A stretch of 64,000 nt of DNA from Verrucomicrobiales bacterium (GTDB taxonomy: Bacteria > Verrucomicrobiota > Verrucomicrobiia > Methylacidiphilales > JAAUTS01). Below are positions 14,101-56,829 of this stretch, in pieces. The stretch is from positions 152,648 to 216,647 of the forward strand of contig JAIRPN010000015.1 of assembly GCA_031256975.1 (NCBI GenBank). The letters run 5' to 3'. The translations under genes and the position numbers were made by a program. The notes beneath the pieces were generated by a model, which did not search any database, was not told the DNA's origin, and saw only the letters and a program-made list of their open reading frames with translations. How positions within the stretch are numbered: position 1 is the first letter of the stretch; the number at the start of each line of letters is the position of its first letter.

Positions 14101-14130
14101 CAAAAAATCGAAAACGCCGACTCTCCTTTA

Positions 14131-14207
14131 CCGCTCACCCTGAGCCTGTCGAAGGGCAATCACATCCTGTGAGTATAGTCATGCTTCGACAAGCTCAGCA
14201 TGAGCGG
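14131..14207. repeat. REP/MITE-like imperfect inverted repeat in a convergent intergenic region
   Basis: CCGCTCACCCTGAGCCTGTCGAAGG (14131-14155) versus the reverse complement of CTTCGACAAGCTCAGCATGAGCGG (14184-14207). It belongs to the widely dispersed 'CTGAGCCTGTCGAAGG' repeat type that generates spurious ORFs such as ...HPEPVEGQ...LRQAQHER... Confidence 0.6.
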
Positions 14208-14228
14208 TATGGAGATTTTCAAAAAAGT

Positions 14229-44070: not shown

Positions 44071-44554
44071 ACGCAGAGACGCGGAGAACGCGGAGTTTTA
44101 TTTTGCCAGCCGCGTTTTCAAATCCGCGATGAAAGCGTCCCGGTCCTTTGGTGAAACCAGCGTGAGGATTTTACCGTTGGTGCCGGTGACTTTGACGCGC
44201 TTGATCGACAGTGCGGGAGAGCTGAGCGGATTGTAAGTTTTCCCGGCGTCATGAATTTTCTCCAGCGGAATGGTTTGCTTGATTAGCCCACACTTGATGA
44301 TTAGCGCCTGATTTGTCAACGTGTAATGGCACGGCACCGCCAGCAAGGCAATGACAACACCAACAAGCAAGCCGCTCAGCATCAAGATTTTGTCACCAAT
44401 ACAGGCACCGCTAATGATCAGCGCTGCCGGCACTCCCGCCAAAATGAGTGCCAGCCACCAGTCTACTGCGGAATAATATCTCTTTTCCATTTTCCCTTCG
44501 CCATTAGCGGTTAATTTCAAAAAAACTCCGCGTCCTCCGCGCCTCTGCGGTGAA
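44071..44554 (-). mobile_element. inverted-repeat-bounded single-gene cassette (PH-domain passenger)
   Basis: Arms are at 44071-44100 (ACGCAGAGACGCGGAGAACGCGGAGTTTTA) and 44521-44554 (reverse complement TTCACCGCAGAGGCGCGGAGGACGCGGAGTTTTT). The same arms flank 51304-51743. The cassette fills the rmuC/tpl intergenic space exactly. Confidence 0.6.
44098..44490 (-). CDS. membrane protein with bacterial PH domain (bPH/DUF1200-like)
   Basis: Start taken at MEKRYY (ATG at 44490). Two TM helices, then YTLTNQALIIKCGLIKQTIPLEKI...SPALSIKRVKV...LVSPKDRDAFIADL, typical of bacterial PH-domain proteins. The stop lies inside the repeat arm. Confidence 0.65.
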   Translation of the reverse strand: MEKRYYSAVDWWLALILAGVPAALIISGACIGDKILMLSGLLVGVVIALLAVPCHYTLTNQALIIKCGLIKQTIPLEKIHDAGKTYNPLSSPALSIKRVKVTGTNGKILTLVSPKDRDAFIADLKTRLAK

Positions 44555-46152: not shown

Positions 46153-46965
46153 GTGCCTGAATTACCAGAAGTCGAAACCACCCGTCGCGGCATTGAACCG
46201 CACTTGAGCGGGCAGCATATCCTGAGCGTTAGCGTGCGCCAGACGCAATTACGTTGGCCAATTCCGGCCGAAATCATCCGTCTGAAAAACCAGCTGGTCA
46301 TTAGCGTCGGTCGCCGAGCCAAATACCTGCTGGTCGAGCTGCCCAAGGGCTGGATCATCATCCACCTCGGCATGAGCGGCACGATCCGCGTGCTGCCGGA
46401 AAAATTGCCGGCCGGAAAACACGACCACGTCGATCTCCACCTCTCCAGTGGCAAAGTATTGCGCTATACCGACCCGCGCCGCTTCGGTTGTTGGTTGTGG
46501 ACCATCAACGCACCCGCTAACCACAAGCTTCTGGCCAATCTCGGCCCCGAGCCACTAACCACGAACTTTTCCGCAGAATACCTGTTTCGCCAATCACGCG
46601 GCAAAAACACCTTGGTCAAACCTTGGCTGATGGACAACAAAGTCGTGGTCGGCGTCGGCAATATCTACGCCAGCGAATCATTATTCCGCGCAGGCATCTC
46701 GCCCAAGCGTCGCGCCAAGTCGCTAACCCCGGACGAATGCAAAAAAATCGTCATTAGCGTCAAAAAAGTGCTGGAACTGGCGATCAAAAACGGCGGCACC
46801 ACCATCAGTGACTTCCTCAGCGCCGAAGGCAAACCCGGTTATTTCGCCCAAAAACTGAAAGTCTACGACCGCGTCGGAGAGCCCTGTCAAAAATGCGGCA
46901 ACCCGGTTCAAAAACTGACCCAAGCCCAGCGCAGCACCTTTTTCTGCGCCCATTGCCAACGCTAA
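46153..46965 (+). CDS. mutM: formamidopyrimidine-DNA glycosylase
   Basis: N-terminal (M)[13 protein letters not shown]2TH region, C-terminal zinf finger CQKCGNPV...FFCAHCQ. GTG start. Confidence 0.95.
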
Positions 46966-46978
46966 AGGTGTTGTGTTA

Positions 46979-47680
46979 TTAAAACGGGATTTCGTCATCG
47001 GCCGGGTCGTCGCCACCGGCAACCTTTCCCGGAAAGGCATCTTCGGCGCAAACAAAATCCGGATATAGCCAAATATGCGAAAATGCCGCGCCCCAGATTC
47101 TCAGAAATGTCAGGTAAATCTGCCTTGCCCATTTGTCACCTGACTTGCAGGCAAAGATCTTTTCCATGTCAAAAAACTTTTCCCCGTGCAGAATTTCCAA
47201 ATCATAGTCGAGGGAATTTTCCTCGGTATTGACATTCAGCCCGCCTCCCAGCGTGTAAAGTGCAAGTTCAGGATTTCCATGCGGAAATTGCACCTGATAA
47301 AGCACGTCGGAATAATTTTCCTCCGTCAGCAACTTAAGATCAAGCAATTGTAAATTCACCATCAGCGTCCACCAGCGGCGACCATTGATGTCGCGCGGGA
47401 AATCGGCGATAAACATATCAAAATGCCGGTCATAATGAACAAAGGGAATCTGCAACGCGACAACACCTTCTTGCTCACGCACATAAACCGGTCGACAATG
47501 GCCACGAATCATTGCCAATGTCGGAGTTAACGGCAATTCGGCATTCTCAGGCCGAATACACTCAATCTCATACTCAAGCGTCGGCTTTCTTTCCCAAGCC
47601 GCCACGGGCGGAATGGAAATGAATTTCCCGGTGGAGTTCTTTCGCATCTTGCCAATGATGCGGTGAAATTCATTTCTCAT
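46979..47680 (-). CDS. hypothetical protein 'B' (233 aa) ending in an SSB-like acidic tip ...GGDDPADDEIPF
   Basis: Start set at the ATG at 47680, which forms an ATGA overlap with the stop of gene A (ORF track extends to 47785). AT-richer than its flanks. No family recognised. Shares an EG..ALQIP... core with gene A. Confidence 0.65.
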   Translation of the reverse strand: MRNEFHRIIGKMRKNSTGKFISIPPVAAWERKPTLEYEIECIRPENAELPLTPTLAMIRGHCRPVYVREQEGVVALQIPFVHYDRHFDMFIADFPRDINGRRWWTLMVNLQLLDLKLLTEENYSDVLYQVQFPHGNPELALYTLGGGLNVNTEENSLDYDLEILHGEKFFDMEKIFACKSGDKWARQIYLTFLRIWGAAFSHIWLYPDFVCAEDAFPGKVAGGDDPADDEIPF

Positions 47681-48162
47681 GATTGCTCCTCGCCATTGGC
47701 ATCCAAAACGAAAACTATTTCTGCCAATACTTTGAGTACTTCGTTGTAGATGGCAAAAAATATGCAGTCGGGAATCGTCCCGCAATGCATGTGTTCAACA
47801 CGAAAATCCACCGAATTGTTTACTTCATTAGCCTCCAGGTGACCGATCGTAATTGCTCTTTGCAATAGCCTAATCAGGTTCTGGAAAAAATCTCCATCCC
47901 TGCTTTTACCTTGCACTAGTTCGAGACGGTATACCAGCAAGTGTAAATTCCGATGTTTATCATCGTCAAACTCAGCTGCGAGCAGCATATAACCATCCCC
48001 TTTGAAAGTTAACGGAATTTGTAATGCGGGCTTCCCCTCCACGCTAACCACGAACACCTCAATCTGCCGTTTCTCAAACCAATCTCTCGCCTGCCGTACC
48101 CCTGCTGTTAGTGTCACTCCGTTTTTTGTCATGGCGCTAATGATGACAAGCGTGAGGGACAT
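47677..48162 (-). CDS. hypothetical protein 'A' (161 aa), paralogous core with gene B
   Basis: ORF translationally coupled to B. An alternative start is the ATG at 48132. No recognisable family motif. Confidence 0.6.
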   Translation of the reverse strand: MSLTLVIISAMTKNGVTLTAGVRQARDWFEKRQIEVFVVSVEGKPALQIPLTFKGDGYMLLAAEFDDDKHRNLHLLVYRLELVQGKSRDGDFFQNLIRLLQRAITIGHLEANEVNNSVDFRVEHMHCGTIPDCIFFAIYNEVLKVLAEIVFVLDANGEEQS

Positions 48163-48220
48163 TTGCGGGGATTCTGCAAAAGGACTGTATTTGTCCCTAC
48201 TGTCTTGCTACTACTTGAAT

Positions 48221-48906: not shown

Positions 48907-49920
48907 ATGGCTCGTCCCTCTCCCTTAAAGAGACCTTCACAACAACTCATCACTCGGCCGCCGCTAGACCGGATGCAACGGATTTTTGCGGCACTAAAAG
49001 CGGGCAATGTGTGCGGGCGCTCGTCATTAGCGGCGGAGATCGAGGTAACGGAGAAGACCATTCAACGCGATATTGATTTTATGCGCGAGCGGTTGAATAT
49101 GCCGATTGCTTATAACCGGGCAAAGCAAAGCTACGAGTTTTCCGAGCCGATTGAAAACTTTCCAATGATTGAGTTGAGCGAATCGGAGCTGGTCGCAGTG
49201 TTCGTCGCGCAGAAGGCATTGGCGCAGTATCGTGGAACGCCGTTTGAGCATTCCCTGCGCGCGGCTTTCGAGAAGCTGACCTCCAATTTGCACGGGAAAA
49301 TCTCACTGTCGTGGGATGACTTGGACTCGCGGTTGTCCTTCCGCAATTTCGAGGCTTCGCCGCTGGATTTGAAAACCTTTCAGGCAGTCGGCGCGGCAGT
49401 CAGGAACGGCGTGTTGCTGGAATTTGATTACAAAAAGTCCGAATCGACAACCTATCAGCGCCGGGTCATCGAGCCGTATCACCTCGGCTGCGTGCAAAAC
49501 CGCTGGTATTGTTTCGGCGAGGATACCGCCAAGCGCGGCGAGATTCGCGTGTTCGTGTTGTCGCGCATGAAAAACGCCAGGTCCGGTGACCGCAAATTCA
49601 AGGCGGTACGAAAATTTTCCATCGAAAAGTATCTGCAAAACAGCTTTGGCGTCTTTAGCGGCAAGGAATCGCACAGGGTCTGCCTGTGGTTTGACGCCTT
49701 CGCCGCGCAATATGTCCGCGAACGCGCCTGGCATCCCAGCCAAAAAATCCGGGAACTCGCCAATGGTGAACTGGAATTGAGCCTGCAATTGTCCGACCTC
49801 GCGGAGATCGAGCAATGGATTCTCAGCTGGGGAGCCCACGCCAAGGCCCTGGCTCCCAGGGCGCTAATCACAAGGTTGCGGGAAACCATCCGCAAACAAG
49901 GCAACTATTACGGCTGTTGA
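48907..49920 (+). CDS. HTH-WYL-WCX transcriptional regulator (BrxR/CapW/PafBC-like architecture)
   Basis: N-terminal DeoR/HTH_11-like region (RMQRIFAALKAG...EKTIQRDIDFMRE), central WYL-type domain (RRVIEPYHLGCVQNRWYCFG...IRVFVLSRM) and a C-terminal WCX-like extension. Starts 26 nt after gene C. Confidence 0.85.
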   Translation: MARPSPLKRPSQQLITRPPLDRMQRIFAALKAGNVCGRSSLAAEIEVTEKTIQRDIDFMRERLNMPIAYNRAKQSYEFSEPIENFPMIELSESELVAVFVAQKALAQYRGTPFEHSLRAAFEKLTSNLHGKISLSWDDLDSRLSFRNFEASPLDLKTFQAVGAAVRNGVLLEFDYKKSESTTYQRRVIEPYHLGCVQNRWYCFGEDTAKRGEIRVFVLSRMKNARSGDRKFKAVRKFSIEKYLQNSFGVFSGKESHRVCLWFDAFAAQYVRERAWHPSQKIRELANGELELSLQLSDLAEIEQWILSWGAHAKALAPRALITRLRETIRKQGNYYGC

Positions 49921-49930
49921 CGGTTGAATC

Positions 49931-50143
49931 GGTTGCAAAACGCCCTGTTCCCCCTTCGGTTAAGGGTTGCAACCTGTTTGATAAAGGCTTTGTCAGGCTT
50001 GGTTATGAGCTGGTTCAGGCTTGATAAGCCTTTTATCAAGTCCGTTAAGCCTTGGTTCAATCCCAACAAGATCTTTGTCCAAGTCGGACAAAGCTTACTT
50101 CAAACTCGCCAAGGCCTTGTTCAAGCTTGAACCAAGGCTTAAC
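49931..50143. other. 213-nt element of three consecutive hairpin domains (candidate structured ncRNA or protein-binding array)
   Basis: SL1 pairs GGTTGCAA (49931-38) with TTGCAACC (49967-74) and encloses CCCTTcggttAAGGG. SL2 pairs TTGATAAAGGCTT (49978-90) with AAGCCTTTTATCAA (50026-39). SL3 is a perfect 17-bp IR, GTTAAGCCTTGGTTCAA (50044-60) with TTGAACCAAGGCTTAAC (50127-43), enclosing CTTTGTCCaagtcGGACAAAG and the palindrome GTTCAAGCTTGAAC. Confidence 0.55.
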
Positions 50144-50268
50144 CAGGCAGGAAAACCGGAAAAACCCTCCATCTTCCCCTTTGTCACGGTCAAAAAACGT
50201 TAAATTACCGTGAAATATTTTGTTTTCTTTCCACCTCGAACCCCTAATCTTTTCGCATTCACAAGCAC

Positions 50269-51303
50269 ATGAAAAAGAGCACCAAATCCAAAAAGGCCTA
50301 TGCCGCGGCCGGCGTAGACATTGACCTCGGCAACAAAGTTAAGTCCGGCATCGGCGCCCGCATCGCCTCGACCCACCGCAAAGAGGTCCTGAGCAAAATC
50401 GGCGGCTTCGGTGGCCTGTTCCGCGCGGATTTCAAGGGTTACAAGGAACCGGTGCTGGTCAGTAGCGTGGACGGCGTCGGCACCAAGCTGAAAATCGCCA
50501 CCATGCTCAACCGCCACGACACCATCGGCCAGGACTTGGTCAATCATTGCGTGAACGACATCGCCGTGGTCGGTGCGGAACCGCTGTTTTTCCTCGATTA
50601 CGTCGGCACTGGCAAACTTGAGCCGAAGACTTTCAATCAAATCCTCAGCGGCCTGGCCGTGGCTTGTAAAGAAGCCGGCTGCGCCCTCATCGGTGGTGAA
50701 ACCGCACAGATGCCCGGCATTTACCAAGGCGGGGATTATGATTTGGTCGGTTGCATTGTCGGCGTGGTGGATCGTAAGAAAGCCATCGACGGCTCAAAGA
50801 TCAAAAAAGGCGACGTGATCATCGGGTTCCCGTCCTCCGGCCTGCACACCAATGGCTACAGCCTGGCGCGTGAAATTTTGTTCAACAAACTCGGCCTCCC
50901 GGTGCAAACCCCGCTGCCCGGCAGCAAACAGTCGCTCGGCGAAGCCTTGCTGATGCCGCACATCAATTACCAGCCCTTGCTGAAGAAACTCAGCAAGAAA
51001 GTCACCTTCAAGGGCCTGTCGCACATCACCGGCGGCGGCTTCGTCGACAACATTCCGCGCATCCTGCCGAAGAACGTCGATGCCGTCATCCACGTTGGCA
51101 CTTGGCCGACCCTGCCGGTTTTCGAATTACTCGAACAAAAAGGCGGCGTCGCGCGCGAGGAACTCTACCAAGTGTTCAATATGGGCATTGGCATGGTCGC
51201 CATCGTCAGCTCCAAGGACGCCCCAAAAGTTCTGGAACACAGCAAGTCCTACATCATCGGCCAGATCGAAAAAGGCAGCTGCAAGGTGCAGTTGAAGTTT
51301 TAG
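50269..51303 (+). CDS. purM: phosphoribosylformylglycinamidine cyclo-ligase (AIR synthetase)
   Basis: YAAAGVDIDLGN, DGVGTKL and GGETAQMPG motifs. Confidence 0.95.
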   Translation: MKKSTKSKKAYAAAGVDIDLGNKVKSGIGARIASTHRKEVLSKIGGFGGLFRADFKGYKEPVLVSSVDGVGTKLKIATMLNRHDTIGQDLVNHCVNDIAVVGAEPLFFLDYVGTGKLEPKTFNQILSGLAVACKEAGCALIGGETAQMPGIYQGGDYDLVGCIVGVVDRKKAIDGSKIKKGDVIIGFPSSGLHTNGYSLAREILFNKLGLPVQTPLPGSKQSLGEALLMPHINYQPLLKKLSKKVTFKGLSHITGGGFVDNIPRILPKNVDAVIHVGTWPTLPVFELLEQKGGVAREELYQVFNMGIGMVAIVSSKDAPKVLEHSKSYIIGQIEKGSCKVQLKF

Positions 51304-51743
51304 TTCACCGCAGAGGCGCGGAGACGCGGAGTTTTATTGGATGGAGCAACTGACAGGACAGATTATTGCTTCGGCGATTGAAGTTCATCGTCATTTAGGA
51401 CCTGGGCTTCTGGAATCGACTTACGAAGAATGTTTGGCCCGAGAATTTGAACTGAAAGAGCTTCCGTTCAACCGCCAAGTGACCTTGCCAGTTACATACA
51501 AAGGACAATCTCTCGATTGTGGTTACCGCATGGATTTTGTGGTAAATGATAAGATTATCCTCGAACTAAAGGCTGTCGAAAAATTTGAACCCATTCATCA
51601 AGCCCAGTTGCTTACTTACTTGAAATTATCAAACAGACAACTCGGGTTGCTCATTAATTTTAACGTCCCCTTGTTAAAACAAGGCATCAAACGAATAGCC
51701 AACAACTATCAAACCTCTGCGTCCTCCGCGCCTCTGCGGTGAA
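51304..51743 (+). mobile_element. inverted-repeat-bounded single-gene cassette (GxxExxY passenger) inserted between purM and purH
   Basis: Arms are TTCACCGCAGAGGCGCGGAGACGCGGAGTTTTA (51304-36) and AAACCTCTGCGTCCTCCGCGCCTCTGCGGTGAA (51711-43). The cassette begins 1 nt after the purM stop and ends 10 nt before the purH ATG. Confidence 0.65.
51341..51742 (+). CDS. GxxExxY protein (PD-(D/E)XK-like small protein family)
   Basis: GPGLLESTYEECL (G-x-x-E-x-x-Y) and DFVVNDKIILELKAV, typical of the family. The last 10 codons (...TSASSAPLR) are encoded by the repeat arm. Confidence 0.85.
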   Translation: MEQLTGQIIASAIEVHRHLGPGLLESTYEECLAREFELKELPFNRQVTLPVTYKGQSLDCGYRMDFVVNDKIILELKAVEKFEPIHQAQLLTYLKLSNRQLGLLINFNVPLLKQGIKRIANNYQTSASSAPLR

Positions 51744-56291: not shown

Positions 56292-56829
56292 TCCTTCAGC
56301 TTCACTAAAAAAGCGCGACGCCCAACCGTCGCGCTTTTTTCTTGTGATGGGGGTGAGCGGTTGCGGCAAAAGTACCCTGGCCCGCGCGCTGGCGGAAAAG
56401 TTTTCCGGCATTTATCTGGAGGGTGATGATTTTCATTCTGCTGCCAACAAGGAAAAGATGTCCGCTGGAATCCCGCTCGATGACCAAGACCGAAGTTCGT
56501 GGTTGGCCTCGCTCAACACCGAGTTAAAAAAACACGCTAATGGCGAAACACCTGTTTTTCTCGCCGGTTCCGCGTTGAAACGGACTTACCGTGACCAGCT
56601 CACCGGAGGTTTACCGGCACCGCTAACGGTGATTTATCTCAAGGGTTCTTTCGAATTGATCCGTTCGCGGTTAGCGTCCCGCAGCGGGCATTTCATGCCT
56701 CCCGCCTTGTTGCAATCCCAGTTCGATATTCTGGAAGAACCTGAGGCGGCATTGGTGCTGGATGTCTCCACCCCGCTTGCCGGGCTGGTGCGGCAGGCCT
56801 GCTCGTTTATAGGCGGTAATGACCGATGA
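56281..56829 (+). CDS. gluconokinase
   Basis: Start at ATG 56281, an 11-nt overlap with gnd. [11 protein letters not shown]-loop followed by GDDFHS...NKEKM, typical of GntK/IdnK. Confidence 0.8.

Follow-up and report, generated by a model that had tools for sequence, protein, structure and literature searches.

REP stem-loops can be reiterated in tandem, and such clusters have been described as a class that lies for the most part 3' of ORFs; each unit of 20–40 bp comprises a stem of 5–13 bp and, at one end, an unpaired GTAG/CGTC (or degenerate GTRG) tag, and Verrucomicrobia such as Opitutus terrae are rich in these stem-loops (Di Nocera et al. 2013, PMC3733652). Two inverted REPs placed around a hairpin-forming spacer make up a REPIN, the dimensions of which are given in PMC3337134 (Bertels & Rainey). 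Inverted repeats are also the binding sites of WYL regulators of the BrxR type, for which a second box beyond the regulator's own promoter is possible (PMC9122601).

The locus analyzed here belongs to a stretch of 64,000 nucleotides (hereafter, the window), in which the encoded WYL and PurM proteins are 100% identical to NCBI/JGI proteins of an uncultured Verrucomicrobiales MAG. A block of hairpins begins with SL1 at 49931, 11 nt past the stop codon of the WYL gene (TGA, 49918–49920), and the gene downstream of it is purM (AIRS/AIRS_C). The block takes up most of the junction sequence listed in Table 1. It has a definite anatomy and a 21-nt periodicity, is restricted to one lineage, and is absent from the orthologous loci of both of its neighbours.

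Table 1. Features at and around the junction between the WYL gene and purM, with positions numbered from the first nucleotide of the window.
Feature	Position	Strand	Description	Basis
Conserved control region upstream of cargo gene	48131–48200	.	Candidate WYL operator, unrelated to the block	
WYL/WCX-domain HTH regulator gene	48907–49920	+	BrxR/YafY-like	Pfam, PADLOC, homologues
Lineage-specific junction sequence	49910–50201	.	Without homology to WYL or purM orthologue loci	
Hairpin block	49931–50143		213 nt, non-coding, between WYL gene and purM	
SL1	49931–49974	.	7-bp outer stem GGTTGCA/TGCAACC and 5-bp inner stem GCCCT/AGGGT	
SL2	49977–50040	.	Stem-loop with 25 pairs	
Degenerate tandem array	49977–50155	+	About 8 units, period 21–22 nt	Word counts, unit alignment, autocorrelation
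SL3	50044–50143	.	17-bp perfect arms around an 8-bp hairpin and a 14-bp palindrome	
Conserved purM upstream segment	50202–50268	+	GAAATATTTTGTTTYCTTTCC...CCCTAA	Four-lineage alignment, BLAST breakpoints

Hairpins and 21-nt units of the block

The anatomy proposed in a sequence-only reading of this locus, with the position of the WYL stop codon, three stem-loops, a 17-bp inverted repeat, an 8-bp hairpin and a 14-bp palindrome, was confirmed. In the MFE fold, the stem-loops are separated by linkers of 2 nt (SL1/SL2) and 3 nt (SL2/SL3). The arms of SL3, GTTAAGCCTTGGTTCAA and TTGAACCAAGGCTTAAC, form a perfect 17-bp inverted repeat (50044–50060 and 50127–50143) with a spacer of 66 nt; about 6e-4 perfect 17-bp repeats with a spacer of at most 150 nt would be expected by chance per 64 kb, and the whole window contains three perfect inverted repeats of at least 14 bp. 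The perfect inner hairpin of SL3 pairs 50073–80 with 50086–93, and the perfect palindrome GTTCAAGCTTGAAC is located at 50119–50132. Inverted repeats of the 8-5-8 type, with a 5-nt spacer, are present at 50020–40 and 50073–93. The perfection of the 17-bp arms, which we attribute below to a recent templated event, could instead reflect selection.

The block is also exceptional in its predicted stability. For the + strand, the folding z-score was −7.0 over 240 nt and −7.5 over 213 nt; the corresponding values for the − strand were −4.4 and −6.0, and no shuffled sequence equalled the block. Among about 1600 windows of 220 nt taken from the 64 kb and corrected for GC, it ranked first on each strand. 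In the predicted fold, 68% of the block positions are paired. A single fold dominates the ensemble, its stems having probabilities of 0.86–0.99, and forbidding the outer stem of SL3 led to folds that were 17–30 kcal/mol worse. A switch-like RNA, one of the possibilities raised earlier, was rejected on these grounds. The strand signal given by the folding models is inconsistent, as SL2 is far better on the + strand (−28.1 vs. −16.6 kcal/mol, with five G-U pairs) and the interior of SL3 favours the − strand (six G-U pairs).

The hairpin reading overlooked that the block is a tandem array. It had rightly described the arms as variants of one word, and word counts agree with this description: with up to three mismatches allowed, the 14-nt word AAGCCTTGGTTCAA has four copies in the block, where the rest of the window predicts 0.07, and with up to four mismatches it has six (0.35 predicted). 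Autocorrelation peaks were observed at lags of 21/22, 42/43, 64, and 85 with z-scores of 6–7, against a maximum of 4.6 reached over all lags by 500 shuffles, and the block is the strongest periodic spot of the window. On the + strand, the units start at 49984, 50005, 50026, 50047, 50069, 50090, 50111, and 50134, with a period of about 21.3 nt and a core of AAGSCTT-KGTTCAAG, and one inverted copy of the unit lies at each end of the array (49977–49990 and 50127–50140). No phase break interrupts the 21-nt register across SL2 and SL3, which suggests that SL3 belongs to the array and was not inserted separately. The period is close to 2 × 10.5 bp, i.e., two helical turns, and would also suit a protein-binding array rather than the decayed repeat that we favour below.

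The units are only about 50–60% alike, and it is because of this divergence that TRF reported no array at the block. Mean column identity between units is 62%, and 3 of the 21 columns are invariant among the seven core units, which is the number expected from neutral decay. The unit opens with the nearly self-complementary AAG-G/C-CTT and continues with KGTTCAAG. A single 21-nt unit contains a dyad of only 3–4 bp (CTTG..CAAG), and pairing occurs mostly between units: those with AAGGCTT complement those with AAGCCTT, and TTGAACC complements GGTTCAA, so that the array folds into three hairpin domains. The hairpins are thus a by-product of a quasi-palindromic unit and of the inverted copies at both ends.

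The block was also compared with known classes of elements. Searches against Rfam 15 gave no match at the gathering level in the whole window, and at E ≤ 10 in the region 49000–51000 they returned only miRNA models, scoring 21–30 bits where the gathering thresholds are 60–160; the block thus belongs to no Rfam family, these matches being sub-threshold noise. ARAGORN detected no tRNA or tmRNA. Neither a promoter-like site nor a + strand terminator-like site was found at the block. No U-tract follows SL1, SL2, or SL3, the tails of which are TGTTTGAT, TCCGTTAA, and CAGGCAGG, although this genome possesses canonical bidirectional terminators, at 56307 and 60582; the lack of U-tracts speaks against termination at the block. 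An ORF of 42/60 aa across the block matched this locus only when compared with 5.8 billion proteins, and a small protein was rejected, the ORFs being judged spurious because they begin with TTG, lack homologues, and show a single change, which is synonymous.

Integron attC sites have the box order 5'-RYYYAAC ... GTTRRRY-3' and an imperfect stem with extrahelical bases. SL3 reads 5'-GTTAAGC...GCTTAAC-3' on both strands, with the box order reversed and a perfect stem, and an attC site was therefore rejected. A type III toxin-antitoxin RNA array was likewise rejected, since the downstream gene is purM and not an endoribonuclease toxin gene. None of the REP tags GTAG, CTAC, CGTC, GACG, GTGG, and CCAC was present in 49921–50160.

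In agreement with the earlier statement that nothing similar occurs elsewhere in the window, no further copy of the block or of its words was found there, either at up to three mismatches or by BLAST. A scan for the 17-mer of the arms gave 48 hits in GTDB representatives and 75 in a metagenome collection (both collections exclude the source genome and the sample of strain L002), which were single and chance-like; none of these 123 loci had two matches or an extended similarity. A gapped inverted-repeat scan of viral contigs gave no match, and blastn against plasmids and phages returned noise or nothing. As no second copy was found anywhere searched, membership of a dispersed REP family is unproven, and the alternative of a generic dispersed REP gained no support from other loci in the window or in the collections searched. 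The absence of both a GTAG/CGTC tag and a second copy speaks against an origin of the REP-cluster type.

Distribution in strains and relatives

Apart from the source sequence, the block was found in just one strain fragment (L002), where it is about 98–99% identical, with four substitutions. Three of the four break stems and none is compensatory: 49934 T>C and 49966 G>A disrupt pairs of SL1, 50027 A>T disrupts a pair of SL2, and the fourth falls in a linker. SL3 is identical in the two strains. Given the proportion of paired positions, these substitutions appear to behave neutrally. Strain L002 is a mosaic when compared to the window, with an identity of 82% over 48955–49354 and of 99% from 49355 across the block to 50227, whereas for purM of this sample the identity is 93%. 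Its upstream cargo gene is unrelated and encodes an HSDR_N-like nuclease. The strain-variable part stops within the coding sequence of WYL, some 575 nt short of the block.

A control region of 75 nt upstream of the cargo gene is kept in the window, in L002, and in the sister genome L003 despite different cargo. It contains the inverted repeat AGGGAC-N7-GTCCCT (48180–48198), and the operator candidate AGGGACTGTATTTGTCCCT has, at up to three mismatches, one occurrence in the window (48180) and none in the block. The word TTTGTCC was rejected as a link between the WYL operator and the block, as it is a common 7-mer with 18 occurrences in the window.

In the sister genome L003/L004, the orthologous WYL gene is 82% identical and is accompanied by homologous upstream genes, but the block is missing: the WYL stop codon abuts a convergent gene, and homology to the source locus ends at about 49909. 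WYL homologues with 60% identity also lack the block. They are followed directly by Metallophos and SMC-like genes or by ResIII and methyltransferase genes, and these neighbours mark the WYL family as BrxR-like defence-island regulators (cf. PMC9122601). The block thus does not travel with the gene C-WYL module in L003/L004 or with the more distant WYL homologues, contrary to the idea that it is an ncRNA component of this module.

On the other side of the junction, purM orthologues were examined in L129, L130, L131, L135, and L136 (94, 90, 89, 87, and 81% identical, respectively), and all five loci lack the block. The shared homology starts at about 50202–50213, i.e., it covers the last 57–67 nt or so before the ATG, and the sequence upstream of this point differs in every purM lineage. 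The variable region ends on its right side at the segment 50202–50268, a probable purM promoter or 5' leader.

Arrays with a similar period were detected in a sister genome. L130 carries a 21-nt array of 11 copies with super-periods of 42 and 84 nt, which precedes purM by about 400 nt, as well as a second array of 25 copies of 22 nt between convergent genes. The 22-nt units are GTAG-tagged stem-loops (GTAG-TCTTC-GGTGACT-GAAGA). Homology of the block unit to the L130 arrays was rejected, the similarity being at chance level over all rotations and both strands. L003 possesses a RAYT-like Y1 transposase flanked by REP arrays, the units of which end in G(N)TCAA, reminiscent of the ...GGTTCAA of the block; this lead was also rejected, as no RAYT or L003-like REP was found in the window or at the other loci. 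Hairpin-unit arrays of about 21–22 nt thus appear to recur in this clade with unrelated sequences and, by analogy, the block would fit as an old, decayed example of them.

Origin and possible roles of the block

The explanation that we prefer, and to which we give about an even chance, treats the block as a tandem array that is confined to one lineage and has decayed, with a quasi-palindromic unit of 21 nt; it would be of the kind known from REP clusters or minisatellites, and a recent templated event would have perfected the arms. A hairpin-prone unit would have expanded locally, in the fashion of a REP cluster or a minisatellite, and a hairpin-templated or inverted-duplication event would then have created the perfect 17-bp arms. 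The array occupies the junction that extends from the 3' end of the WYL gene, beside swappable low-GC cargo, to the conserved purM promoter segment, and the gene C-WYL transcript would end in it. Its hairpins would most likely slow or stop read-through and block 3' exonucleases. Such a hindrance of read-through would insulate the purM promoter, incidentally and not as a dedicated regulation, and the block would act at most as a terminator or insulator. There is no evidence for a conserved regulatory RNA or for a part of the WYL module.

The direct repeats of the block recur every two helical turns or so (lags 21/22, 43, 64, and 85; z 6–7), as in iteron- or centromere-type arrays. The block might be a phased DNA-binding array of an iteron-, centromere- or operator-like kind, with about eight degenerate sites bound cooperatively by the WYL regulator or another factor and a role in the control of the purM promoter or in the marking of the locus. 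The period of 21.3 bp with its harmonics at 43, 64, and 85 and the dyad character of the unit core CTTnGTTCAAG are consistent with this possibility, as is the binding of inverted repeats by BrxR-type regulators, with a possible second box (PMC9122601). An array of binding sites for one protein had also been suggested by the sequence-only reading. The architecture of an array with 21-nt phasing was confirmed, but not an array bound by the WYL protein: the candidate operator at 48180–48198 differs in sequence and is missing from the block. Moreover, the units are only 50–60% alike with three invariant columns, as under neutral decay, no replication or partition (Rep/Par) gene stands beside the block, between WYL and purM, and the purM orthologues, like the WYL orthologue of L003, do without it. 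We thus consider a phased binding array unlikely. A wider proposal has an even lower probability in our view, namely a functional platform with 21.3-bp phasing, made of protein-bound dyad sites or repeat RNA, that would represent an undescribed class of 21–22-nt hairpin-unit arrays at variable junctions. It is based on three arrays in two genomes, whose unit sequences are unrelated, and such a platform could act as an insulator or boundary element beside swappable defence cargo.

A low-copy, non-autonomous MITE/REPIN-like element mobilized in trans is also a doubtful explanation of SL3 or of the whole block; it would have TIRs of 12–17 bp, and its target duplication, TA or TTAA, would be concealed by the palindrome. 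SL3 does resemble a REPIN in its 17-nt inverted ends around a 66-nt spacer with internal hairpins, and a MITE in its perfect 17-bp TIRs; its total of about 100 bp is a REPIN/MITE-like size (REPIN: PMC3337134), the presence of the block is restricted to one lineage, and the RAYT of a sister genome is flanked by REP arrays with G(N)TCAA at the end of each unit. However, a second copy is lacking in the searched data, as is a parent IS with such ends in the searched collections, no Y1 transposase (RAYT) is encoded in the 64-kb window, and the REPs of L003 are dissimilar. The 21-nt register of the flanking units continues through the interior of SL3, which argues against an independent insertion. 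A GTAG/CGTC tag is missing, and any TA or TTAA target duplication would fall within the palindrome, from which it is indistinguishable.

A structured RNA of about 200 nt, as a 3'-UTR element or an independent sRNA of the WYL-regulated cargo module, would account for the strong predicted fold, which is best overall on the + strand (z −7.0 to −7.5), and for the five G-U pairs of SL2, which exist only on this strand, that of the WYL gene. This is very unlikely in view of the lack of an Rfam match and of a promoter-like site, the preference of the SL3 interior for the − strand, the absence of co-occurrence with the module in L003/L004 or with distant WYL homologues, the stem-breaking nature of three of the four strain substitutions with no compensatory change, and a fold that is single and stable instead of switch-like. 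We assign the lowest probability of all to an att-like recombination site or scar that would form the right end of an acquired island made of genes A–C and the WYL gene. The block does lie at the right edge of a lineage-variable segment, and to this extent the earlier proposal of an island boundary holds; genes A–C have a low GC content (39–48% vs. about 55%), a lyase gene and an fpg remnant directly abut purM in L135, and strain identity is mosaic (82%, then 99%, then 93%). A discrete island end did not emerge from the analysis, as the left (46900–47040) and right junctions have no direct or inverted words of at least 8 nt in common. Furthermore, no integrase or transposase gene is adjacent, the breakpoint of the cargo swap between strains lies inside the WYL gene and not at the block, the order of boxes is not of the attC type, and L135 represents a deletion that also took most of fpg and not an empty site.

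Comparison with known systems

If the decayed-array explanation is true, little depends on it, and the block adds one case to the palindromic or tandem fillers of intergenic regions that are specific to a lineage. A tandem unit that is quasi-palindromic can mimic a multi-domain RNA, which calls for caution when RNAs are called from hairpin density. Together with the two arrays of L130, the block points to recurrent, seemingly uncatalogued arrays of 21–22-nt hairpin units in this uncultured Verrucomicrobiales clade. The WYL regulator, whose control region is conserved and whose cargo genes are swappable, promises more as an object of study than the block.

Intrinsic terminators without a U-tract ('I-shaped' and clustered) are said to have been described in mycobacteria by Mitra et al., and REPs were reportedly found by Newbury et al. 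in 1987 to act as mRNA 3' stabilisers. Tandem U-tract-less terminators would resemble the block in its stack of stable hairpins, 11 nt past a stop codon and before a separately promoted gene. The block has far more structure than a terminator requires, however, and this genome uses canonical ones.

Plasmids carry 22-bp iterons, and sopC of F is composed of 43-bp repeats. Iterons and centromere arrays share with the block a phasing of about two turns, a super-period of 43 nt, and dyad cores, but they have an adjacent Rep/Par gene and well-conserved units, and the block is chromosomal. The block also has inverted repeats with a 5-nt spacer beside a BrxR-like gene, like the R-BOX of BrxR (Picton et al. 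2022, PMC9122601); unlike BrxR operator boxes, it does not contain the candidate operator sequence, and WYL orthologues exist without it.

Bacterial minisatellites are similar to the block in that they consist of head-to-tail units of constant period (21–22 nt in the block), are non-coding, and vary between close lineages, whereas simple slippage arrays would have neither inverted copies at their ends nor a perfect 17-bp inverted repeat. REP families differ from the block in being tagged, multi-copy (tens to thousands), and less decayed than its units of about 50–60% similarity. A REPIN, as a doublet with inverted ends, is similar in size to SL3 with its 100 nt or so (PMC3337134; Bertels & Rainey). 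REP clusters and BIME-like arrays (PMC3733652) share with the block an intergenic site just 3' of an ORF, between co-directional genes, short hairpin-prone units in both direct and inverted orientation, and a lineage-specific occurrence.

The WYL gene, its neighbouring cargo gene and a strain breakpoint

A control region of 75 nt carrying an inverted repeat was kept in three lineages, namely the window, the strain fragment L002 and the sister genome L003 (Table). The gene located between this region and the WYL regulator gene was swapped from one lineage to another, while the control region itself was conserved. In the window, this cargo gene encodes a low-GC protein of 219 aa that weakly matches the UDG superfamily, and L003 has a 217-aa homologue of it. 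The cargo of L002 is instead an HSDR_N-like nuclease of 336 aa, for which PADLOC gave PDC-S02 hits. Together, the control region, the exchanged gene and the WYL gene look like a WYL-controlled cargo-swapping slot.

A sharp recombination breakpoint between strains was located within the WYL gene, at window position ~49355. On its left side (48955-49354), 70 differences were found between strains (82% identity), compared to 8 differences (99% identity) on its right side (49355-50227). The purM gene from the same sample as the strain fragment was 93% identical to that of the window, and contigs L002 and L128 both stop within the conserved segment, a putative promoter, upstream of purM (window 50227/50248). 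These contig ends suggest a strain polymorphism 5' of purM in that sample.

Variable sequences around purM

In the window, a palindrome adjoins the putative purM promoter segment on its upstream side, and other inverted repeats occupy the same place in two relatives carrying a purM orthologue, with 16-bp arms (AACCACGGATGGACAC) in L130 and GGGCTTTGCCGG/CCGGCAAAGCCC in L131. In L135 (87% PurM identity), fpg is reduced to its first ~20 codons, located between purM and the lyase gene. This arrangement is a deletion of fpg plus everything as far as the purM promoter.

On the other side of purM, a small PD-(D/E)XK (PDDEXK_3) gene separates it from purH, and is bracketed by two inverted copies of a GC-rich repeat of ~33-37 nt. 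The same cassette was seen in the relatives L128-L131 and L136, and was missing from L135.

Structured spots and repeat arrays

The second most structured spot of the window was a long hairpin between convergent genes, with arms (CGCTCACCCTGAGCCTGTCGAAG) of 26 nt that are 88% complementary and a spacer of 29 nt. Repeat arrays were also found in the sister genomes L130 and L003. The 21-nt array of L130 had been miscalled as a 96-aa ORF, and a Y1 transposase gene of L003 is flanked on both sides by arrays made of GC-rich REP hairpins of three kinds, each kind terminating in G(N)TCAA.

Coordinates of the features in the window and in related genomes
Feature	Location	Details
Control region (75 nt)	window 48131-48200; L002 307-378; L003 ~1460-1540	AGGGAC-N7-GTCCCT
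Palindrome	window 50184-50213	TCACGGT-N16-ACCGTGA
fpg remnant	L135 1363-1440	vs window 46165-46212
PDDEXK_3 gene	window 51341-51742	
GC-rich repeat	window 44072-44102, 44518-44554, 51304-51339, 51711-51743	TTCACCGCAGAGGCGCGGAG(A/G)ACGCGGAG
Long hairpin	window 14129-14209	
21-nt tandem array 5' of purM	L130 284-534	11 copies, TTAGAG-N4-6-CTCTAA
22-nt array between convergent genes	L130 9950-10499	25 copies, GTAG-tagged stem-loops
Y1 transposase and REP arrays	L003 9470-10300	RAYT/IS200-like, 148 aa
11-mer, example copies	window 12808, 14739, 44500, 60466, 62304	GCCATTAGCGG
11-mer, inverted pairs	window 12246/12264, 60587/60604	

An iterated 11-mer

When up to one mismatch was allowed, the two strands of the 64-kb window contained 33 copies of the 11-mer GCCATTAGCGG (longer consensus, TTCGCCATTAGCGGC), compared to 1.5 expected copies (shuffle maximum, 4). 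Copies were found both in coding and in non-coding DNA, two inverted pairs form terminator-like hairpins, and the motif was also present 5' of purM in L129 and L131. This pattern is characteristic of a motif that resembles a DNA-uptake sequence or is highly iterated in some other way, and the 11-mer may be of greater interest than the hairpin block (49931-50143).
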